The notes below the pieces were generated by a model. It searched no databases, was not told the origin of the DNA, and was given only the letters and a program-made list of their open reading frames with translations. Shown here one piece after another: positions 46,612 to 62,976 of a DNA stretch of 64,000 nucleotides. Origin of the DNA: Escherichia coli (GTDB lineage Bacteria > Pseudomonadota > Gammaproteobacteria > Enterobacterales > Enterobacteriaceae); NCBI RefSeq assembly GCF_001677475.2, contig NZ_CP015229.1, one strand, 5' to 3'. Both the position numbers and the translations under genes were made by a program. Position 1 is the stretch's first letter. The number at the start of each line of letters is the position of its first letter.

Positions 46612-47400
46612 TTACCGTTTACTCGTCAATAACAACGCGGCAATAAACGTACAGACACCAATCAGCCCTGCCCAGAGTGGCGATATTCTGGTAATTGCAA
46701 AGCTATTATCGATATACAGGCATAAAGCCTGATAGCCCATATTGGCAACAGTCATCGCCACTGCAAATTTTAATGCATAAATAAAACGAGTCGTGTAGTA
46801 AAAGACCGAGGAAAATAAGATAAACGTCGCAGCCCAGGCGATAAAACCTAATGTGTTGGTACTGCCGGGGGGATCATTTTCATGCTGTTGTCCTGGATGC
46901 GGATAATACGTCAGTGGCGGCGTCGGTTGTTTTAATATCTGTACTTGTAGAACAGCCAATGCATTATTGATTCCCTGATACCATAGGCCAGCATGTAAAT
47001 AAGCCAGCGTGTGATTTTCTATCAGAAGGCCGAGATGTTTATCGTCCAGACCGCTTTCAACCTGGCCATTGGTGATCATAATTAACCGTGGTTCGCGGGT
47101 AGTAAATAGTAACAGAACACTTCCTTTTACATCACTCAATGAAGATGACGCATGCGCCAGCATCGCTTTACCATTTTGTCTGAGACTGGCTTCATTATTA
47201 ATGTCGGGTAAAACCACAATAAACGGTGCAACTCCGGTTTGTTGGCGAAAAAGCTCGGCTTTATGCGCGATCTCTTCAGCATCTGGTACAGTACCGGTAA
47301 CATCCGTAAAAAGTGTCTTCATTATTGGAATTAATGGTTTGCTGGCTGCTGTCAGAGGCAGGAGTATCAGTAAACTGAGCAGTATTATGATTTTTTTCAT
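46612..47400 (-). CDS. ycfZ: TPM-domain membrane-associated protein YcfZ
   Basis: 262 aa, signal peptide and C-terminal TM segments; K-12 synteny. Confidence 0.85.
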
Positions 47401-47900
47401 GGGCGGGACTTCCGTTTCCTGCGAGATTTTTTGGTGGAGGGGAGAGTGATTATCAGACCGACACTACCGAAAATAATGCCTGCTATGCCAACAAAGCCCC
47501 ATTTAAAAAAATTAACCCAGGGATTGTTTATTTCGGCTTGTTCTGGATGCCCTGGCGGATAATAGACATTGACTCTGCCACCTTCGCTATCTTCATAAAA
47601 ATCACTACCGATACTCGAATTGAAAATTAGCGTGTAATCTGGCGTAGGGCGAAAGGCAACCACTGGATACCAGGAGCCATTATCACCGACGTCGTTTGAG
47701 TGATTGTTGTACCAAACGACATCAACAATGATTCCTTCTGTATGAACCGCGCTTTTGGTAAAAGTAAAATGGTAACAAAAGATAATTGCAGAAATAACGA
47801 GCAATATCAGACCGATACCGAGAAAAGCGTGGGATAACACTTTACTGTCCTGACTCATTAGCCACATCCTTGCTAAATAAAAAACGGGCGGTAATACCAC
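47397..47900 (-). CDS. ymfA: inner-membrane protein YmfA
   Basis: Small TM protein overlapping ycfZ start; the true start may be about 14 codons inside the track ORF. Confidence 0.8.
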
Positions 47901-47915
47901 CGCCCGTTTGCTGAA

Positions 47916-48962
47916 TTAACGTCCTGCTTTCAGCTTCTGATAATACTCTTCATAAATGCTGCTGGCTGCGCCAACGTCATTCTGCCATTCACCATTTTTA
48001 ATGGTTTCAGCATCCGGGTAGAGCGTTTTATCGTTCGCCACTTCCGGGCTTAACAGCTTACGCGCCGCAAGGTTTGGCGTTGGATAACCGATAGTTTCGG
48101 CAACCTGTTTTGCCACATCCGGGCGCAGCAGGAAGTTGATCAGTTTCAGCGCGCCTTCTTTGTTTTTGGCATTCGCCGGAATTGCCAGGCTGTCCATCCA
48201 GAAAATGCCGCCTTCTTTCGGCCACACGACGTCAATTGGTGTACCCGCCTGGCGTGCAACGAAAGCAGAACCGTTCCAGATCATGCCGAGGTTAACTTCG
48301 CCTTCCATGTACGGGTTAGCCGGGTTATCGGAGTTAAACGCTGCGACGTTTGGCATCAGTTTTTTCAGCTCGTTATATGCAGCTTCAATCTCTTTCGGAT
48401 CGGTGGTGTTACCGGAATAGCCCAGCTTACGCAGCGCCATCTGGAACACTTCACGGGCATCGTCGGTCAGCAGCAGGCTGCCTTTGTACTCAGGCTTCCA
48501 CAGATCGGCCCAGCTGGTAACGGATTTCGGATCCACCGCATCACCGTTAACGCCAATCGCCGTCGCACCCCAGATATACGGAATGGAGTAGTCGTTATTC
48601 GGGTCAAAAGGCTTGTTGAGCATGTCTGGATCGAGATTGCTGAAGTTCGTTAACTTCGACTTGTCGATCTTCTGGATCATCCCTTCTTTACGCATTTTAT
48701 CGACGTAATAGGTTGAAGGAACCACCAGGTCATAGGCACCGTCTTTGTACGTTTTCAGCTTGGCATACATGGTTTCGTTCGACTCGTAAGTCGAATAGAT
48801 AACCTTAATACCGGTTTCTTTGGTGAACTGTTCAAGCAGTCCTGGCGGCACGTACTCGGTCCAGTTGTAGAAATACAGCGTGTTGTTGTCATCGGCGTGA
48901 GCGGCGCTCATGCCCAGTGCCAGAGCACCCGCCGCGAGCAGGTGGCGTGACCATTTTTTCAT
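47916..48962 (-). CDS. potD: spermidine/putrescine ABC transporter periplasmic binding protein
   Basis: 348 aa with signal peptide. Confidence 0.95.
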   Translation of the reverse strand: MKKWSRHLLAAGALALGMSAAHADDNNTLYFYNWTEYVPPGLLEQFTKETGIKVIYSTYESNETMYAKLKTYKDGAYDLVVPSTYYVDKMRKEGMIQKIDKSKLTNFSNLDPDMLNKPFDPNNDYSIPYIWGATAIGVNGDAVDPKSVTSWADLWKPEYKGSLLLTDDAREVFQMALRKLGYSGNTTDPKEIEAAYNELKKLMPNVAAFNSDNPANPYMEGEVNLGMIWNGSAFVARQAGTPIDVVWPKEGGIFWMDSLAIPANAKNKEGALKLINFLLRPDVAKQVAETIGYPTPNLAARKLLSPEVANDKTLYPDAETIKNGEWQNDVGAASSIYEEYYQKLKAGR

Positions 48963-49753
48963 TTAACGTCCCCTGTGTTACCTTTCGTTTTATCACGAGC
49001 AATAAGCTGGCTGGCAATAACCATCACCAGCGACAGCACCAGTAATATGGTTGCCAGCGCGTTAACTTCCGGCGATACGCCGACTTTGACCATCGAATAA
49101 ATTTTTAACGGCAGAATTTCATAACTTGGTCCGGTGACGAACGAAGAAACTACCACATCGTCCATCGACAGGGTAAAGCTTAACACCCAGCCCGCCGCTA
49201 CCGCTGGCATTGCCAGTGGCAGAATGATTTTTCGCAGAATGGTAAATTCGCTGGCACCGAGATCTTTCGCCGCTTCCAGCATTCGCACGTCAAAACCTTT
49301 CAGGCGCGAATACACTGTCACCACCACAAATGGCAGGCAGAAGGTGATATGCGAGAACAGCAGCGACCAGAAGCCAAGCTGAATACCCAGCAGCATAAAC
49401 AGCACCAGCAGCGAAATCGCCATCACGATATCTGGTGACATCATCACTACAAACAGCATTCCGCTAACGAACGGCTTACCACGAAAGCGATAACGGTACA
49501 GTGCAACTGCCGTCAGTGAACCGATAAGCGTAGCAAACGTCGCCGAAAACACCGCCATTGTTAGTGAATGCTGCGCTGCCTGTAACAGGCTGTCGTTGTT
49601 CATCAGCAGGCTATACCATTTGGTGGTAAAACCCTGCCAGTTGATGCCAAAGCGCGAGCTGTTAAAGGAGTTCACAATCAAAATAATGATTGGGATATAC
49701 AGGTACGCGTAGATAGCGGTCATAAAACCGCCGCGAAGCAGTCGACCGATCAT
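48959..49753 (-). CDS. potC: spermidine/putrescine ABC transporter permease
   Basis: 264 aa, six-TM permease with ABC EAA-loop region. Confidence 0.95.
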   Translation of the reverse strand: MIGRLLRGGFMTAIYAYLYIPIIILIVNSFNSSRFGINWQGFTTKWYSLLMNNDSLLQAAQHSLTMAVFSATFATLIGSLTAVALYRYRFRGKPFVSGMLFVVMMSPDIVMAISLLVLFMLLGIQLGFWSLLFSHITFCLPFVVVTVYSRLKGFDVRMLEAAKDLGASEFTILRKIILPLAMPAVAAGWVLSFTLSMDDVVVSSFVTGPSYEILPLKIYSMVKVGVSPEVNALATILLVLSLVMVIASQLIARDKTKGNTGDVK

Positions 49754-49788
49754 TCGAGTTCCACCTTCTTATTCATAAGGCGGGACAC
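49750..49788 (-). other. potB: potB 3'-terminal codons (…SRLMNKKVELE-stop) retained next to potC; probable prophage att core / junction
   Basis: Minus-strand frame upstream of potC reads …KVSRLMNKKVELE with TGA overlapping the potC ATG, matching the remembered PotB C-terminus; the frame closes about 40 codons upstream with non-PotB sequence. Confidence 0.55.
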
Positions 49789-49919
49789 TTTCAGGATTTT
49801 GAATTTATTCAATTTTTTCCTTTCTCCAAAATCTCTCCAAAACGTTTCCCCAAAACTAGGCCACGCATTTTACAACACTTTTTTCCTGAGATGGTGACGG
49901 ATATTCCATATGGTGTTTG

Positions 49920-51038
49920 TCAAATAACCAACTTAACCCATTCCTGACCTCGAGTATCGTTATAGCGATCGGTGGTTGCCTGGACTTTATGTCCTAGTAA
50001 TGTTTTTGTATCGATACCCTGTGCACGGTACAGCCGTTCTGATAGAGAGCGTTGTTCATGAAATGTTGGCGGAGTTTTTCCTGCTGGTGGAATTATCCCA
50101 GCCAGATCCCGTGCTTTGGCAAAGTAGTCGCTCAGGTTGTCTTTACTCATCGACTTCGGTTGTTTCTGGTGCCGACTATGGATTAGATATGGACTTAATA
50201 TTCTGTCTCGGCACCCATCAATAACTTCTTTTAACGTTATCCCAATGGCATCACAGCGTAGTGTAAGCGGTAACGCCAGACGCATTCCGGTTTTTCCTTG
50301 GGTGATATGCAAGTGTTCGTTCCACACATCTGAAAAACGCATGTGGCAAATGTCATCACGGCGCTGACCAGTAACAATCGCAAGAAGCATTGCGTTACGG
50401 ATAAAGTGTTTTTCAGGCGTTGCGTTGTAAATTTTTTGCCAGTCTTCCAGGGTGAGTCTGGCTCTGGTTACTTTAGGGATTGGTTTACGGGTAGCCTCCG
50501 GAGGATTCCATCCAGGAGGAACTTCCCCTGCATGCTGTGCTTCTTTATAAATATCAAGCCATAATCCGCGATTTACTCTCGCTGTGCTGACCATGTCTTT
50601 ATCCAGCCACTCATCCAGTATTAATGCAAAGTCTCTTACTTCCAGTTCTTTCAATGGGTGGTTTCCCAGACGGGAAACCAGGAATGCAGCCATTCGCGCT
50701 TTTTCTTTGTGGGTTGTAGCTGCAATATCTCCATTTTTCAGGCGCGCGTCCTGTATTTTCAGATATCGATCAACCCATGCCTTTAATCTGATACCCCGAC
50801 GTTTTGTTGCTGATGGACTTTCATCAATTTTGCGCATGAAATATTCAGCTTCTGCTGCAGCTATTCGCTGATTGGCTGTGGAAGCGATTTTTTCTGCCTT
50901 ACCTTTGTCTGTTCCGAGTCCGTGAAATTTTCCAGTCACAGGATTTTTATACTGGTAGTAAACTCTGCCAGTTCTGCGATCAAACTTTTCGTAAAGACCG
51001 GCTACGTCAGTGCTGTTTTTTCGTGGCCTCGGTGACAT
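49920..51038 (-). CDS. int: lambda-family tyrosine integrase
   Basis: 372 aa; C-terminal catalytic region HEQRSLSERLY…LLGHKVQATTDRYNDTRGQEW resembling lambda Int. Confidence 0.93.
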   Translation of the reverse strand: MSPRPRKNSTDVAGLYEKFDRRTGRVYYQYKNPVTGKFHGLGTDKGKAEKIASTANQRIAAAEAEYFMRKIDESPSATKRRGIRLKAWVDRYLKIQDARLKNGDIAATTHKEKARMAAFLVSRLGNHPLKELEVRDFALILDEWLDKDMVSTARVNRGLWLDIYKEAQHAGEVPPGWNPPEATRKPIPKVTRARLTLEDWQKIYNATPEKHFIRNAMLLAIVTGQRRDDICHMRFSDVWNEHLHITQGKTGMRLALPLTLRCDAIGITLKEVIDGCRDRILSPYLIHSRHQKQPKSMSKDNLSDYFAKARDLAGIIPPAGKTPPTFHEQRSLSERLYRAQGIDTKTLLGHKVQATTDRYNDTRGQEWVKLVI

Positions 51039-51285
51039 GAGTTAAAATCTCCTTCAGTGCATCATCATCGCCAGTATGAATTTCCGGCGCAATTCCCGTT
51101 TCACCAGGCCCAACAAATACTGCTCGGCGATCTATCAGCCAACGCCCACGAATTTTTTGTGGTCTTGGAACGATGTATCCTAGTTTTCCGTATTTCACCA
51201 GGGTAGTGTTTGTTATTGGGAGACTGAACCGTTTTGGTTTCCACTCGTCGAGCGTTATCAGGTACTGTTCGCTCATGGCTATCAC
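51007..51285 (-). CDS. xis: excisionase (Xis-like)
   Basis: Small basic ORF overlapping int start; LITLDEW…VFVGP pattern resembling lambda Xis; start may be at MSEQYL (51276). Confidence 0.7.
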   Translation of the reverse strand: MIAMSEQYLITLDEWKPKRFSLPITNTTLVKYGKLGYIVPRPQKIRGRWLIDRRAVFVGPGETGIAPEIHTGDDDALKEILTHVTEATKKQH

Positions 51286-51337
51286 TCCGGAACGCGCCAG
51301 TTGCAGAATATCAACGACAACTGGCGACGGTTGAACA

Positions 51338-53809
51338 TTAAAAATCAGCCTGATTCGGGATCAGTTTTTGCCAGATAGCTGAAACGTATTTTGCCTGGTG
51401 ACGAGCGTCATCAAGTGCATTATGGCGCTCACCTTCGAATGGGATAGCAGTTCTGGCATCGAAGTCTATGGTTTTCCCCAGCTCAACGATTGTGCGTACA
51501 TCGCGATCGTTGTAGTAACGCCACGGGCAGGGGATCCCCTGCCGTTCGTATGAACGGCGCAAAATCGTGTTGTCGAAGTTGGCTCCATTTCCCCAGACCT
51601 GAACAAAAAACTCACCGGAGTTTTCGGCGATAAATTCCCGCAATTGCAGTAGTGCATCATCTAACGGGATTTCATCGGTCATAATGGCAGACTGCGCTTC
51701 ACGTGATTGCTTCAGCCACCATTTAATGACGTCACGATCAATGACTCCGCCAGCAGTATCCAGATCGATGGTCTTGCTAAATTCCGGTCCCATATCACCG
51801 GTTTGCGGATCGAAAAATATTGCACCTATTGAGATAATCGGGGCATCAGGATTTTTTCCCATGGTTTCAAGGTCGATCATCAGATGAATCCCCGCTCTGC
51901 TGGTGGATGTGAGATTATGATGACTGTTCATCTTAATTAAGGGATCTGTCGCCTCGCCAGTTTTATTATCGCTGGCGTGATGCTGATTGCCGCCAGGGTT
52001 CTCCTTGTGTGGATGTTCAGCGCCTTCCATTTCCTCCGGATCATTTTCCTGAACTTCAGGCTGATTCTCTTCATCGAATATTTCCTGGTATGTTGCGTCA
52101 CCCATCACCGCGCCACAATCAGGGCAGTTGCCGCCACCGCTCTGACCGCAGGCTGTGCAGACTTTTTCCGGTTCCTGTTGCGCTACTGGCTCAGGTTGTT
52201 TCGTTTCTGGCTCGTTTTGTTGCGTATTTGGGCTGTTTTGTTCCGCTTTCTGGTCGTTCTGTTCCGTTTCTTGCTGGTTCTGGTTCACAGAATCGCGGGT
52301 TTCAATCCCCTTCACCCATTTCGGATCATTCGGATCGCTAATCCCTGCAACAAATTCACCACGTGATACTGCAAGCAGTTCATCGGCGTCATGCTGGCTG
52401 ATATTGGCTGCCTGCATAATTTTGTTTACTTCGTCAGCGGTAACTTTTACCGGCCCTGGTTGTGCGGTCGTGTCAGATGCACCAGTATTTTGTTGTGAAC
52501 CTGAGTATGTACCGTTTTTGCGGGCGAAATATTCTTCTTTCGTGATTTCAGTAGCCCCGGCAGCCAGTGCCTTATCCAGACCAGAAAGTTTGTTTGCGCG
52601 ACCGTATTTTTCGCCATCCTTGTCGGTGAAGAGGAAGTAGAATGGCCCCTCACGCTCTACAGATGGTTCGACTTCCACTTTGCATTCGGTTTTTTCGTTG
52701 TCCGGAATTGCCGTTTCCACTGCATCAGTTTCTGGTACTGGCGACGAGAGAGTATCAGTTGCGCTCTGATTTCTTCCTTCATCTTCAAACACGCCCTTTG
52801 TAGTCAGGTATTCAGTAATGTATTTGTTCAGTGCCACAGGGTCTTTGTGAATGTCGATCGGACGTTCACGAACAAGGCCAAAAATAGTCTGGCGGTCGTA
52901 GCGAAGGGCATCAGGCTGTTTGCGCATTGATGCCGAGATACGCTTCCAGTCTTCGCGGTCGTTGTCGATAACTTCATTTTTTGCCCAGCGATGGATGCTG
53001 CCATCAATGTTTCCGACATCCACATCACCAGGCCAGAGAGCGTAGGCCAGTTCGTCATCCAGTGTTTTCCATGTCTGCTTGTATTCGCGATGAGTGGCAG
53101 CAATGACCGGGCTGATTTTTCCTGTTGAATTTTCAGTGTGCTGTTGATTGGCTCTGGCGCGGGCGAGATCAACAACAGACGTGTATTTTCCGGTTTCCTT
53201 GCGTTCACCTTCGCGACGTTTTTTCCAGATGCGCATCTCTGCCTGAATTTCGGGCCATTTGGCACCAGGCTTACATTTATGCTTAACCCACCCGATGGCA
53301 TGCAGCTTAAGCTCCGGATACATGGCGTTAACTTCTGGCATTTTCATCAACGCTTCAACGATATGTCCGTCGAATGTTGCCATGTCTTCCTGCAACAATT
53401 CCTGCGCGCTAATCACCATATCAACGGTGATGTTTTCACATGTACCGAACTTAACCAGGACCGCGTTCTGTACTTCAAGGGACAGCTTGTCAAAATTGAC
53501 GTTAATAGGATCGGATTCTGGTTCGACCGGAATAAAGGAAGCGGATTCCTCATCCCAGCGGTTTTCCTGCATATATTCGGTATCCCAGGAGTCGATAGCA
53601 GGGCGGGGCATGCCGGGTTTATCTTCGCAGACAAGAAATTTATAAGCGCAGTCCTGAGCAGCAGGATATTGCTCCAGGAATTGCCAGGTAAATTTGGCAC
53701 GGGCGCGGCGTTCATCACCGGCTTCAATGGCAGTGGCTACAGCAACTGCGCCCTCTTCTTTTATTGCCTGTTCGTCCGGAATGGCGGCGCAAATAAAGAC
53801 TTTACTCAT
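51338..53809 (-). CDS. large phage protein with C-terminal DEDDh 3'-5' exonuclease domain (often annotated exonuclease VIII-like)
   Basis: 823 aa; C-terminal IHLMIDLETMG…GNGANFDNTIL…HNALDDARH (DnaQ-like Exo I/II/III motifs); central CTACGQSGGGNCPDCG zinc ribbon; Q/E-rich linker. Confidence 0.8.
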   Translation of the reverse strand: MSKVFICAAIPDEQAIKEEGAVAVATAIEAGDERRARAKFTWQFLEQYPAAQDCAYKFLVCEDKPGMPRPAIDSWDTEYMQENRWDEESASFIPVEPESDPINVNFDKLSLEVQNAVLVKFGTCENITVDMVISAQELLQEDMATFDGHIVEALMKMPEVNAMYPELKLHAIGWVKHKCKPGAKWPEIQAEMRIWKKRREGERKETGKYTSVVDLARARANQQHTENSTGKISPVIAATHREYKQTWKTLDDELAYALWPGDVDVGNIDGSIHRWAKNEVIDNDREDWKRISASMRKQPDALRYDRQTIFGLVRERPIDIHKDPVALNKYITEYLTTKGVFEDEGRNQSATDTLSSPVPETDAVETAIPDNEKTECKVEVEPSVEREGPFYFLFTDKDGEKYGRANKLSGLDKALAAGATEITKEEYFARKNGTYSGSQQNTGASDTTAQPGPVKVTADEVNKIMQAANISQHDADELLAVSRGEFVAGISDPNDPKWVKGIETRDSVNQNQQETEQNDQKAEQNSPNTQQNEPETKQPEPVAQQEPEKVCTACGQSGGGNCPDCGAVMGDATYQEIFDEENQPEVQENDPEEMEGAEHPHKENPGGNQHHASDNKTGEATDPLIKMNSHHNLTSTSRAGIHLMIDLETMGKNPDAPIISIGAIFFDPQTGDMGPEFSKTIDLDTAGGVIDRDVIKWWLKQSREAQSAIMTDEIPLDDALLQLREFIAENSGEFFVQVWGNGANFDNTILRRSYERQGIPCPWRYYNDRDVRTIVELGKTIDFDARTAIPFEGERHNALDDARHQAKYVSAIWQKLIPNQADF

Positions 53810-53902
53810 TTTGTTTTAACCTCATTACAGATTTAAGGGTGAACAAATCCCTGCCATTGCTGGCATATAAAAATGAAACCGGATATTAATTACGGTGCTG
53901 TT

Positions 53903-54094
53903 TTAAAGTCCTGCCGGTATTTCGTTATTATTAGTGTGAGTAGTTTTATCTACCGGATAACAGTTACCGGGAATTTTTTGTTCTGCTGCTGCAGCCATGC
54001 ATTCTTTCATTGAACCGTATAAGCCAGTCACCAGCTCAAGAGATTCGCCGGAAACAAGATAAACTGTCAGAACGAGTGCAAATGTTGTATTCAT
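53903..54094 (-). CDS. small membrane-anchored protein (kil-position), unknown function
   Basis: 63 aa with N-terminal hydrophobic helix; start overlaps upstream gene stop (ATGA). Confidence 0.55.
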   Translation of the reverse strand: MNTTFALVLTVYLVSGESLELVTGLYGSMKECMAAAAEQKIPGNCYPVDKTTHTNNNEIPAGL

Positions 54095-54279
54095 TGTTTA
54101 TATCCTTTTTGCAGCAGGTCCAGACGAGCCAGCATTGAAGGAATGCATACTTCATTTAACAGGTCCTGCTCGAGTTTTCTCTGCTTAATGGCGTCTTCAA
54201 TAAATGTTTTGTCTCCAGTGATAACGCCAATTTCGAAACGAAGTTCAGACGTGCTGGCATTACATGATAACTTTTCCAT
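54091..54279 (-). CDS. small hypothetical protein (kil-position)
   Basis: 62 aa from MEKLSCNASTSEL with GAGGA SD 9 nt upstream; the track's 97-aa version lacks an RBS and overlaps an inverted repeat. Confidence 0.55.
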   Translation of the reverse strand: MEKLSCNASTSELRFEIGVITGDKTFIEDAIKQRKLEQDLLNEVCIPSMLARLDLLQKGYKQ

Positions 54280-54296
54280 TATCGCGTCCTCAACAA

Positions 54297-54444
54297 TGAA
54301 TTTTGTGATGCGGTGCCTGGTGCCTCCAGGTGACGTTAACCAGTTAACAATTAACGCAGGATACAGAGAATCCACCCATAACACTGTTTTTGGTTTTTAC
54401 TGTTCCGCGTGCGCTGAGCCGCATTCACCGCATCACAAAATTCA
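54297..54444. repeat. perfect 19-bp inverted repeat pair (tgaattttgtgatgcggtg / caccgcatcacaaaattca) flanking a 110-bp palindrome-rich spacer
   Basis: Arms at 54297-54315 and 54426-54444 checked base by base; spacer contains cctggtgcctccagg and gttaaccagttaac palindromes. Confidence 0.85.
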
Positions 54445-54856
54445 CTTTTAAAAAAGGGCGGCAGAGCAGTCACGGAGTAAAACTGATACCGCCAAATGTC
54501 ACCAGAATATTGATAACAGAGGGCGTTGTAGCGGGGTTGTCACTTAAGCGTATGGTCAACCTGACAACCCGGTGTCCTCAACGGGGAAAGGCGTCCCTCC
54601 CACCCCCGCCATACTTACCGCCGCGCCATTTCGCGGGTCGCCACAACCGGAAGCGCACGGTCGAATTAAATTTAACGACACCGTGCAGTGAGACGAACTT
54701 CGCCGTGCGCTTTCGTGTTGTGTGCCTGCTTTTAACCACGTCAGGCGAGGTGGTTTCCGTCATTCCCCAACGACAGGAAATCTGTATAATCTGGGTATCC
54801 CCAACGATCCAAGGAAATCATATGACAGAGCAAAGAGCACAAGCAGGTGATGGTGT

Positions 54857-55303
54857 ATGGACCGGGATGATATTCTTGACAGAATTTTTTATGGCTATTT
54901 TCTTGAGCAACTGTTTTCTGTAGCGACTGGTCGTCTCGATAAACTTCTCTCAGTAGTGAGTATTATCCTCGGTTCATCTGTCATTGGCGGATTCATTCCG
55001 GAAATTTCTGGCGTTTTTATTGTTGTGATCGCAACCGTCCAAACGATTTATGGATTCGGACAAAAGTCAGGTAATACCATGAGAAAATCCGCAGAATATT
55101 TGCAGCTTTTTGATGATGCAGAAAAATATTCTGATTCGGAATTGAAAATTCAGTTAAAAACTCTGGAAAAAACAGATGATCATATTTGGTCATCACTTAA
55201 AGATATTGCGATCTTAAAAACACAGATCAAAATAGGCGTCTCCATCGAACAACAAGAGAAGTTGCCCACAAAATCCAAATTGATGCGATTTCTTTGTGGT
55301 TAG
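54857..55303 (+). CDS. 2-TM membrane protein on opposite strand at the Rac sieB position; candidate superinfection-exclusion / abortive-infection effector
   Basis: 148 aa, SD AGGTGA 6 nt upstream; two adjacent hydrophobic helices (LSVVSIILGSSVIGGFIP / ISGVFIVVIATVQTIYGF) then charged C-terminal tail; convergent with flanking minus-strand genes. Confidence 0.65.
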   Translation: MDRDDILDRIFYGYFLEQLFSVATGRLDKLLSVVSIILGSSVIGGFIPEISGVFIVVIATVQTIYGFGQKSGNTMRKSAEYLQLFDDAEKYSDSELKIQLKTLEKTDDHIWSSLKDIAILKTQIKIGVSIEQQEKLPTKSKLMRFLCG

Positions 55304-55392
55304 GAATATCCAGATTGTTAAAGAGCATGCCGGAGGTTTATCCGTGTCCGGCGCACGCACTTCATCTGCGGAGAACTACTTGAGCTCATTGG

Positions 55393-55608
55393 TCAGTAGT
55401 TTTCAATCACTCGCGAAACGTTTAATGCCGCGCTTTTTGCCAGAGTGGTAATATCCTGCTCCGCTGACACCAGTTCTTTAGAGAGGCGCTCTTTGTAGTC
55501 AGCGGCCTGCTTCAGGTCATTAATGGCGCGTATCTTTCCGCACATCCATTCGTAAATTTCATCCTCGGTATAGTCTGGTGCGATGATGACGGGTTCTCGT
55601 TTCTGCAT
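55393..55608 (-). CDS. hypothetical protein
   Basis: 71-aa ORF MQKREPVIIAPDYTEDEIYEWM…; hairpin gccggag…tccggc between it and the convergent 2-TM gene. Confidence 0.5.
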   Translation of the reverse strand: MQKREPVIIAPDYTEDEIYEWMCGKIRAINDLKQAADYKERLSKELVSAEQDITTLAKSAALNVSRVIENY

Positions 55609-55637
55609 ACTGATTCCTCGCGGTGCCGCTTCGCTTA

Positions 55638-55766
55638 TCAGCCGTTAGATTTTGCCGAACTGGAAAGCGCCTGTTTAAACTCACTGAAGCTGAGAGCTTC
55701 TTCGCCTTCGGCAAGGTCTTCGAAGTATTCTTCGTAAGCCTTTTCCATGATTGCGTCGAAATCCAT
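55638..55766 (-). CDS. small acidic hypothetical protein (42 aa), ydaF-position
   Basis: Hand translation MDFDAIMEKAYEEYFEDLAEGEEALSFSEFKQALSSSAKSNG; starts 2 nt after stop of upstream gene; not in track (<60 aa). Confidence 0.5.
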   Translation of the reverse strand: MDFDAIMEKAYEEYFEDLAEGEEALSFSEFKQALSSSAKSNG

Positions 55767-55767
55767 A

Positions 55768-56010
55768 TCACTCACCTGAATTTCTTTCCAGCCAGCGACG
55801 AGCGCCAGTTTCGGTTTTAAACGTTTTACTTTTGGTATACGTCATCGCGGTGAATGTGCCGTCCTGGTTGGGAAACACGCCGTACACCAGAGATTCGTTG
55901 TTGCCAAGATCGATAGTATCCATGTTGACCTCATTTCCCCTTAACGCTGGGGTAGCGGAACTAAAAACCTGCTGCGCTGTTATACAAAGTGTTCCCGCCG
56001 TCATGTTCAT
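55768..56010 (-). CDS. small hypothetical protein, ydaG-position
   Basis: 80-aa track ORF; real start may be the internal Met (MDTIDLGNNESL…). Confidence 0.45.
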   Translation of the reverse strand: MNMTAGTLCITAQQVFSSATPALRGNEVNMDTIDLGNNESLVYGVFPNQDGTFTAMTYTKSKTFKTETGARRWLERNSGE

Positions 56011-56126
56011 ACGCCTCGGGCTGGCTACTTAATCCCTGACCACTACCGGGTAACTCTAGGTATTGCCCTGTATTGTGTGGGACGGGATGGGTTGGTATGG
56101 GAAAACTATAGGAAATGCCTAATTGC

Positions 56127-56147
56127 TTGTCAATAGGCTATGCCTAA
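56127..56147. promoter_or_regulatory. operator-like site, downstream copy of 21-bp inverted repeat flanking repressor gene
   Basis: ttgtcaataggctatgcctaa is the exact reverse complement of 56772-56792; additional tgcctaat half-sites at 56114-56124 and 56160-56170. Confidence 0.6.
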
Positions 56148-56241
56148 TGATTTGGGTGCGACCTAATAGGTGATGGTTTGTGGGAGAGGTAGTAGGAGTT
56201 AACTAACGGGAACTAGGAATTTCCCGTCGGACCATATAAGT

Positions 56242-56718
56242 TTAAGTTCCTGTCTTGGTGATGTTCTGGCTTTTCCGTTTTGATTCTTGATTTTTCAGAT
56301 AGTTAGCTACCTTCATTTCCATTGCGGCAATGTAGGCGCGAACGTCATGATCAACCCAACTAGGCTCCGTAGCATTTCCAGATAAGAGGAAAGCCACAAT
56401 TGCTCTTTTTTCATCAGAGGCGGCTTGATAAAGGCTGTTTATGTCTAAAAGTTCACTTTTTGTATCTGAAGTGGATGGGGTTGGTATGGGGTATTCGTTA
56501 AGCCCCCAATGCTCTGGACCAACCACATCAGAAAAGAAACGCCATAGTTCTGGAAGTTTGTCTTTACTTATCGAACCTTTCTTAATCCAGTCATGGATTG
56601 ATGGTGGTTGGACTTTGAAATGACGTGCGATTTCCGCCTTTGATTTGACGGCTCCTGATGCAATTTTTTTGTTAATGGCCTGCTCTATCGCTCGGCCTAA
56701 GTCTTTACCACTAAGCAT
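56242..56718 (-). CDS. prophage repressor, RacR-like (HTH, no S24 peptidase domain)
   Basis: 158 aa with N-terminal HTH (KAEIARHFKVQPPSIHDWIKKG); divergent from Cro-like gene; same length and position as Rac RacR. Confidence 0.75.
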   Translation of the reverse strand: MLSGKDLGRAIEQAINKKIASGAVKSKAEIARHFKVQPPSIHDWIKKGSISKDKLPELWRFFSDVVGPEHWGLNEYPIPTPSTSDTKSELLDINSLYQAASDEKRAIVAFLLSGNATEPSWVDHDVRAYIAAMEMKVANYLKNQESKRKSQNITKTGT

Positions 56719-62576: not shown

Positions 62577-62820
62577 ATTCATTCCGTATGGGAATTCCCA
62601 TATCGGGCAAAAACGGTTTGCTGTAAAGCGAGAGTTAAGTAGAATTGCTGCGGGTGCTTGAGGCTATCTGCCTCGGGCATGCCGCCGTAAGGCAGACAGA
62701 GAAAAGCCCCAGTTAACATTACGCGTCCTGCAAGACGCTTAACATTAATCTGAGGCCATATCTATGACTTGCACACGTAGGTTAGCCTCTTACGTGCCGA
62801 AAGGCAAGGAGAAGCAGGCT

Positions 62821-62976
62821 ATGAAGCAGCAAAAGGCGATGTTAATCGCCCTGATCGTCATCTGTTTAACCGTTATAGTGACGGCACTGGTAACGAGGAA
62901 AGACCTCTGCGAGGTACGAATCCGAACCGGCCAGACGGAGGTCGCTGTCTTCACAGCTTACGAACCTGAGGAGTAA
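62821..62976 (+). CDS. hok: Hok/Gef-family type I toxin (HokD/RelF-like)
   Basis: 51 aa MKQQKAMLIALIVICLTVIVTALVTRKDLCEVRIRTGQTEVAVFTAYEPEE; AAGGAG SD; in-frame upstream ATG at 62764 gives a 70-aa mok-like extension. Confidence 0.85.
   Translation: MKQQKAMLIALIVICLTVIVTALVTRKDLCEVRIRTGQTEVAVFTAYEPEE

Follow-up and report, generated by a model that had tools for sequence, protein, structure and literature searches.

The closest described relative of the locus reported here is the dicBF operon of the Escherichia coli K-12 prophage Qin (ydfABC-dicF-dicB-ydfDE). The locus itself is a block of small genes at positions 53903-56010 of a 64,000-nt stretch of E. coli DNA, referred to below as the window, and its main subject is a gene for a 148-aa protein with two transmembrane (TM) segments, which lies within the block on the opposite (plus) strand. 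DicF, which like DicB stops cell division, is an antisense regulator of ftsZ and other mRNAs, and in K-12 Qin RNase III yields a 190-nt DicF species from the precursor stretch (PMC10448788). K-12 DicB inhibits division via MinC (MinC binding, FtsZ ring formation) and blocks ManYZ-dependent phage DNA entry (PMC6832061), and K-12 YdfD is a lysis protein that inhibits IspG (PMC8835842).

A second described system, the sieB/sas module of P22, lambda and Rac, supplies the precedent for the plus-strand gene. In lambda, in a P22-like phage and in K-12 Rac, sieB is immediately preceded by a leader element of ~100 nt, on the strand opposite PL. The original work on sieB and sas, known here through later papers, is reportedly that of Ranade and Poteete in 1993. 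Secondary sources describe sas as switching sieB translation and SieB as aborting superinfecting phages midway through the lytic cycle. With this module the plus-strand gene of the window shares its slot in the PL operon, its orientation opposite PL, a leader of ~100 nt and the sas hairpins.

The third point of comparison is the SLATT superfamily of two-TM effectors, which is said to have been defined by Burroughs et al. in 2015 (again known here via later papers). Characterised SLATT proteins act with a sensor or partner (RT, SMODS, SLOG). That SLATT proteins permeabilise membranes and cause cell death is a prediction in the literature too. The 148-aa protein resembles these effectors in general size and in fold, with a two-TM hairpin between an N-terminal helix and C-terminal helices; unlike theirs, its gene is embedded in a phage regulatory slot and stands alone, apart from an upstream micro open reading frame (micro-ORF) in its relatives. 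Its new features are this solitary state, its position behind a sieB/sas leader and, in relatives, its pairing with a micro-ORF that encodes polyproline.

Set against these systems, and judged from its sequence, the block is with near certainty the accessory part of the PL (early-left) operon of a Rac/Qin-type lambdoid prophage integrated beside potC. We propose that a dicBF operon is combined here with a SLATT-fold effector in the sieB slot, and that the effector is silenced by an antisense RNA derived from PL. This account as a whole is held with moderate confidence. Its identification part is near certain, and an anti-phage function of the 148-aa gene, argued by analogy, has about an even chance of being correct. 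The firm ground consists of the gene and RNA identities, the homology of slot and leader, the covariation in the antisense RNA, the fold similarity, purifying selection and the exchange of cargo in the slot.

Leader, antisense RNA and exchange of cargo in the sieB slot

On the minus strand, window positions 54819-54721 are 81% identical (77/95) to the published P22 sas sequence, which is printed in PMC13397905. The same DNA, read on the plus strand, forms a leader of ~100 nt upstream of the 148-aa ORF and is conserved between loci whose proteins are only ~30% identical. It contains a hairpin (GCCTG-N13-CAGGC) and two direct repeats (TTCCCCAACGAC and ATCCCCAACGA), followed by a Shine-Dalgarno sequence. 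Covariation was assessed by aligning 22 diverse leaders, each read in the direction of sas. A hairpin of 11 bp whose loop is GGGG (54754-54783) carries compensatory changes at 7 of its 11 pairs; 96.6% of the cells are paired, versus 34-54% with the partners slid, and the observed covariation score was reached by none of 500 shuffles. Many of the pairs are G-U and are valid on the minus strand only. By this homology, the right half of a GC-rich segment that had been taken for empty is a sas-type antisense RNA, the complement of a sieB-type leader. By analogy with sas, it would be produced as a stable RNA of ~105 nt and would switch translation of the sense mRNA.

Two other readings of the leader were discarded. 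A boxA-like run together with the hairpin (GCGCTTTCG ... GCCTG-N13-CAGGC) had been considered as a plus-strand nut site; this was given up, as the homology of the element lies with the sieB leader and sas and the G-U pairs favour the minus strand. The view that the conserved upstream DNA is specific to the 148-aa family was rejected, since only 22 of 119 loci with the motif carry a member of that family.

These loci come from a pattern scan of viral contigs for the leader, in which 96 of the 119 motif loci were true copies. The 148-aa family occupies 22 of the 96, and the rest carry at least three unrelated cargo families. The other cargo comprises SieB (PHROG 6399) in lambda, P22 and Rac; a coiled-coil protein of ~150-173 aa (PHROG 1244), function unknown; and a 144-aa protein (PHROG 5286) and a 98-aa protein, functions likewise unknown. 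Examples of loci with other cargo, among loci L053-L171, are L055, L065 and L113, and L175 (3001-3094) is another. In the window the plus-strand cassette (54716-55352) is complete, and 671 bp (54734-55404) stand in place of 135 bp of K-12 Qin. There (L002 2528-2700) the sieB slot between ydfC and dicF is empty, and what the 135-bp remnant retains is a variant form of the leader hairpin and the hairpin of the right border (CCGGA..TCCGG, GCGCACGCAC). In L049, another prophage of E. coli, a 26%-identical paralogue fills the same slot, and the right-border hairpin is also present. All ten contexts of relatives that were examined are lambdoid prophages, and the gene usually lies between the early-left genes and a CI-type repressor gene, opposite PL. 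In one distant relative (L006 4526-4696) the two-TM gene and its micro-ORF are found downstream of the Q antiterminator, beside isrK and C4 antisense RNA genes, so this two-gene unit moves outside the sieB slot too. The 148-aa ORF is present in only 71-88 of 5,426 complete E. coli genomes. The unrelated families behind one type of leader suggest that the sieB slot is a cargo-exchange hotspot in enterobacterial lambdoid prophages.

The 148-aa protein and its upstream reading frame

The 148-aa ORF is intact and has a good Shine-Dalgarno sequence, and its product has TM segments at about residues 30-47 and 50-67. The protein belongs to PHROG 6315, a group of unknown function. Nothing specific was found in Pfam for it or for 73 members of its family, and it gave no NCBIfam and no PADLOC match at threshold. 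A search with a shallow alignment of the gene returned E. coli copies only. A profile search of 1.84 billion cluster representatives returned 136 homologous clusters, nearly all of 150-165 aa, and the family alignment shows conserved R26, G52, Y81, L84, D107, A118 and a C-terminal LAG motif. The dN/dS values against diverged E. coli copies were 0.09-0.17, which indicates purifying selection.

The first AlphaFold2 (AF2) model, made from 7 close sequences, had a predicted local distance difference test score (pLDDT) of 54 and was unusable. Distant homologues were then added, and the deep alignment gave a model with a pLDDT of 95.2, in which a long N-terminal helix runs into TM1 and is followed by TM2 and four cytoplasmic helices. 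Foldseek searches of AFDB50 with this model gave full-length matches with TM scores of 0.89-0.97, about half of them annotated SLATT; for ~20 SLATT-annotated AFDB proteins the Foldseek probability was 1.0 and the TM score 0.89-0.95. Weak matches in BFVD were mostly SLATT-labelled. Hidden Markov models (HMMs) for SLATT_4, SLATT_1 and SLATT_fungal matched 13 of 30 family members below threshold and in the right register, and a match to the PADLOC RTasSLATT model had an E value of 0.013. We therefore describe the protein as SLATT-fold and probably a distant member of the SLATT superfamily; by HMM criteria we do not call it a member.

The possibility that the protein is a SieB homologue was rejected. 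When the family profile was compared by hhalign with SieB from lambda, a P22-like phage and Rac, the probability was 0.2%. SieB also differs in its PHROG assignment (6399 versus 6315 for the window protein) and in its length (162-221 aa versus 148 aa).

In the relatives, a proline/lysine-rich ORF of 25-53 codons ends 4-10 nt before the start of the two-TM gene. This micro-ORF was seen in all examined relatives except the deletion variant described below, with or without a sieB leader (L003 3340-3500; L004 1583-1684; L045, L049 and L050, in each case just upstream of 6001; L005 and L006). Its consensus is DY-E-K/R-H-M/L-P..K/Q-RP.P.PKP, often with PPP or PPK, and no PHROG matched it. It might serve as a sensor of translation or encode a small partner protein. 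Note that the sieB/sas module differs here, in that sieB has no proline-rich upstream ORF and the relatives of the 148-aa gene have one. What is left of the micro-ORF in the window is a remnant of 33 codons, out of frame and overlapping the start of the 148-aa gene; loci L124 and L003 keep the full ORF. The distance from the leader repeat to the ATG is 51 nt in the window versus 169 or 183 nt in 30 of 37 related loci. The deletion responsible is common to 6 of the 37 related viral loci, and copies lacking the upstream ORF also occur in several complete genomes.

Proposed mechanism and competing explanations

The mechanism that we propose extends the SieB/sas precedent and the SLATT literature to the window, from which expression in the lysogen, membrane permeabilisation, an anti-phage phenotype and antisense silencing are all carried over by analogy. 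By homology, a single transcript leads leftward from the RacR-repressed promoter (~56105-56133) through ydfA, ydfB and the ydfC-like gene. It then crosses the plus-strand cassette in the antisense direction before it reaches DicF, dicB, ydfD and finally the gene for the exonuclease. In the lysogen, the plus-strand cassette would be expressed on its own, and the 148-aa product would be held in the inner membrane as a latent, SLATT-like, membrane-permeabilising effector that, in the manner of SieB, either aborts infection by superinfecting phages or excludes them. Firing of the resident PL would turn the effector off, through convergent transcription and the pairing of the sas-like RNA with the leader, and the phage's own lytic growth would be spared.

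Several observations weigh against this proposal. In the window, a deletion between two 10-bp copies of CAAGCAGGTG has removed the conserved upstream ORF. Substitutions among the deletion copies, relative to the window, are 0 synonymous and 2-5 non-synonymous, which are small numbers; because all of these changes are non-synonymous and the upstream ORF is lost, the window copy may be deregulated or decaying. The SLATT HMM threshold was never reached (11.9-18 bits versus cut-offs of 35-55, with nothing in Pfam), the best NCBIfam SLATT score being 18 bits against a cut-off of 55. No gene for an RT, SMODS, SLOG or TIR sensor was found within 5-6 kb in the window and in 10 related contexts. A sigma-70 consensus scan called no promoter for the plus-strand gene, and the TATAAT that can be read in the leader at 54785-54790 is a match to the -10 element only. 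An Esc-type internal start was also considered and rejected: the one internal Met past the TM hairpin, M75, is not conserved, and relatives of 60-66% identity have G, S or R in its place.

The solitary state of the gene would also fit a different mode of action, in which the 148-aa protein acts in true superinfection exclusion and stops incoming phage DNA at the inner membrane, like P22 SieA, T4 Imm, HK97 gp15, or DicB via ManYZ, and not as an abortive-infection pore. A constitutive blocker would have no need of a sensor partner, the protein is a small two-TM inner-membrane protein encoded by a prophage moron opposite the lytic operon, and SieA does block injection at the inner membrane (PMC10461980). 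We nevertheless regard entry blocking as unlikely. The fold resembles SLATT effectors and not known injection blockers, the slot and leader belong to sieB, whose abortive action falls in the middle of the lytic cycle, and antisense self-silencing best suits a function that is harmful to the lytic growth of the resident phage. The loss of the upstream ORF counts in favour of another reading, in which the gene is not anti-phage at all and either has another role in lysogenic conversion or within the phage (e.g. lysis timing or stress tolerance) or is, in the window, a decaying remnant whose regulation was lost with that ORF. The recent substitutions, all non-synonymous, agree with this reading, as do the absence of a defence-library match at threshold, the presence of the gene in only 71-88 of 5426 complete genomes, and the empty slot of K-12 Qin, which has no known consequence. 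Set against these are the strong purifying selection across diverged copies (dN/dS 0.09-0.17), the conserved length and motifs of the 136 clusters, the intact ORF with its good Shine-Dalgarno sequence, and the recurrence of the ORF-lacking copy in 6 of 37 viral loci and several complete genomes. A function outside defence, or decay, appears quite unlikely.

It is very improbable that the whole block is one novel multi-gene defence system in which the small minus-strand proteins and the two-TM protein cooperate, although the genes lie side by side and DicB is known to act against phages (PMC6832061). The two-TM cassette is an independently mobile insert that replaces 135 bp of K-12 Qin, and its early-left neighbours are quite different in prophages of Enterobacter and Proteus, among others, while in L006 it lies downstream of Q. 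The dicBF operons, for their part, are present in 4756 of 5426 genomes, mostly without the cassette. The two strands are also convergent and would interfere with each other instead of being co-expressed.

A bolder version of the SLATT-fold effector proposal can be offered only tentatively, and we think it improbable as stated. Here the sieB leader and the sas-type RNA would constitute a portable platform for the expression of, and self-immunity to, swapped toxic cargo of at least five families, and the SLATT-fold protein with the polyproline micro-ORF would be a new two-part abortive-infection module. The trigger of such a module might be a disturbance of translation (e.g. ribosome stalling at the proline run) and not a nucleotide signal.

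Should the 148-aa gene prove to be anti-phage, a stand-alone SLATT-fold protein would be able to work without RT or cyclic-nucleotide partners, and the sieB slot would be seen to keep its leader and antisense RNA while the effector changes. Looking behind the sas-type leader might become a way to find defence genes in the prophages of enterobacteria. The search for a new function now concerns a single gene whose borders are clear and for which there are a confident structural model and a hypothesis of regulation. An earlier note on this DNA had put forward the block as a whole as a candidate for an undescribed function; one such candidate, the 148-aa protein, remains, and it is narrower than the block proposed, which is mostly the studied dicBF operon. 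The note had also named the outcome that would count against its proposal, namely that all proteins match characterised homologues with no extra component. This is nearly what was found, and the extra component is the 148-aa protein, which is not SieB and for which Pfam, NCBIfam and PADLOC all gave nothing at threshold.

The dicBF operon and the surrounding prophage

The minus strand carries an early-left dicBF operon of the Qin type, which is controlled by a repressor of the RacR type. Its features, together with those of the plus-strand cassette, are collected in Table 1.

Table 1. Features of the block at 53903-56010 and of the adjoining promoter and repressor gene, listed from left to right.
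Feature	Coordinates	Strand	Basis
ydfD homologue, 63 aa, DUF1482	53903..54094	-	PHROG 1092, E 3.5e-34; 40/63 vs K-12 YdfD
dicB, cell-division inhibitor, 62 aa	54091..54279	-	NCBIfam NF049927, 123.7 bits (cut-off 100); 34/62 vs K-12 DicB
DicF small RNA	54456..54507	-	Rfam RF00039, 77 bits (gathering score 48), full length 1-52
DicF precursor/processing region, GC-rich, non-coding	54508..54720	-	K-12 Qin alignment, 84% identity
Homologue of P22 sas antisense RNA; complement is the sieB-type leader of the plus-strand gene	54721..54819	-	77/95 identical to P22 sas
Remnant of proline-rich upstream ORF, internally deleted, frame-shifted	54822..54923	+	Comparison with loci L124 and L003
Gene for 148-aa two-TM protein, SLATT fold, PHROG 6315, sieB slot	54857..55303	+	AF2 model, Foldseek, family search
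Hairpin GCCGGA-N12-TCCGGC, right border of cargo slot	55329..55352		Read from sequence; also in K-12 Qin and L049
ydfC-like gene, 71 aa	55393..55608	-	PHROG 1744, E 2.3e-27; 40/68 vs K-12 YdfC
ydfB, 42 aa	55638..55766	-	PHROG 2061; 40/42 vs K-12 YdfB; RefSeq annotation in relatives
ydfA, 51 aa, DUF1391	55768..55923	-	PHROG 751, E 3.5e-36; 50/51 vs K-12 YdfA, 43/49 vs Rac YdaF
PL-type operon promoter, TTGACA-17-TATAGT	56105..56133	-	11/12 consensus positions; adjoins repressor gene, upstream of ydfA
RacR-type repressor, predicted to control the operon	56242..56718	-	145/158 vs K-12 RacR; RefSeq annotation in relatives

The block is collinear with K-12 Qin at 84-95% nucleotide identity, except for 54734-55404, and shares with it gene order, strand and a PL-like promoter beside the repressor gene. 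The aligned stretch at 53800-54733 is 84% identical and extends from ydfD to 220 bp upstream of dicF. Within the early-left operon DicF comes after ydfC and before dicB, its processing region is retained as judged from this collinearity, and its sequence differs from that of K-12 Qin by one base. The dicB product scores above the NF049927 cut-off over residues 1-62 and is encoded directly upstream of ydfD. The ydfD product (63 aa, PHROG 1092) has a hydrophobic N-terminus, and PF07358 is recorded on the equivalent gene of L049. Each of the small proteins of the block has one strong PHROG match. Identities to the K-12 Qin proteins range from 55% to 98%, and the repressor is 92% identical to RacR; YdfA (50/51) and YdfB (40/42) are nearly unchanged, DicB, YdfD and YdfC stand at 55-63%, and YdfA, YdfB and YdfC match their named families at 59-98%. 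Unlike Qin, the window has a RacR-type repressor in place of DicA, and its DicB, YdfC and YdfD are diverged alleles. The promoter position corresponds to that of dicBp in Qin (PMC10448788) or of PL. The functions of DicB, YdfD and DicF in the window would follow from work on their K-12 homologues, with the reservation that the window DicB is only 55% identical to K-12 DicB.

When positions 53800-56250 were compared by megablast with 5,426 complete E. coli genomes, parts of them were matched in 4,756. The matches carry the annotations DUF1482, dicB, ydfB and DUF1391, to which phage records add 'DicF antisense sRNA', and the RefSeq annotation of near-identical loci agrees with the identity of the operon.

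The earlier note had likened the position of the block to that of Rac kilR-sieB, and the parallel is exact: DicB is the kil-type inhibitor, and the two-TM gene occupies the sieB slot behind a sieB-type leader. The two coupled small genes that it described, one of which it took to be membrane-anchored, are dicB and ydfD, whose stop and start codons overlap by 4 nt, and its opposite-strand two-TM gene is likewise in place with two hydrophobic segments. The three small minus-strand ORFs are real and are ydfA, ydfB and the ydfC-like gene. One of them, however, had been over-extended, since the ydfA ORF (55768-56010, 80 aa) exceeds a conserved product of 51 aa. Similarly, the dicB ORF at 54091-54384 (97 aa, GTG start) is an over-extension of a conserved gene of 62 aa, and within the ydfB ORF (55638-55775) the gene starts at an ATG that gives 42 aa. 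The GC-rich segment without a credible ORF is present (54385-54856, ~470 bp, GC up to 0.52-0.565 versus 0.34-0.43 in its flanks), but it is not empty, as it holds DicF, the precursor region and the sas-type RNA and leader. The annotation gains two non-coding RNAs (DicF and the sas homologue) in this 'no ORF' segment, and two ORF boundaries are corrected. The statement that none of the genes carries an assignable motif was mistaken. DicF and five of the six block proteins fall in named families, of which DicF, DicB and YdfD are experimentally characterised (PMC10448788, PMC6832061, PMC8835842) and YdfA, YdfB and YdfC are not. Because DicB blocks ManYZ-dependent phages, one known function of the block is already anti-phage.

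In K-12 Rac, the small RNA (sRNA) kilS (locus L172 1906-2003, minus strand) occupies the position equivalent to that of DicF, between kilR and the sieB leader, and its 3' part resembles the DicF terminator stem. From its position, Rac and Qin share the order kil-type gene, sRNA, sieB slot and ydaF/ydfA. A weak match to the Salmonella sRNA STnc100 was seen at 54302-54442 on the minus strand (28.7 bits, gathering score 47, E 0.0027). The match takes in the gap that separates dicB from DicF, along with the 5' end of the dicB ORF as over-extended, and is probably due to chance or to a distant relative.

The 823-aa 'exonuclease' that adjoins the block (51338-53809, minus strand) is of the YdfE type and not of the RecE (exonuclease VIII) type of K-12 Rac; its equivalent in L049 is recorded with the Pfam domains YdfE_N and YdfE_C and with a 3'-5' exonuclease domain of the Rv2179c-like kind. 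The prophage of the window also has, further right, a sok antitoxin RNA (62652-62826, plus strand; Rfam RF01794, 110.6 bits), which indicates a locus of the hok/sok toxin-antitoxin type. The prophage integrase (49920-51038) follows directly after potD-potC (47916-51038 for the genes together). At least 80% of 47000-51300, which covers potD, potC, the integrase and the excisionase, is matched in 1,610 of the 5,426 complete genomes, and the potC-adjacent site looks like a frequently used integration site. In the host part of the window, the rne 5' untranslated region element and the SraB sRNA are found at 4297-4633 and 6494-6662, and the window thus belongs to the part of the E. coli chromosome that runs from rne to potABCD.

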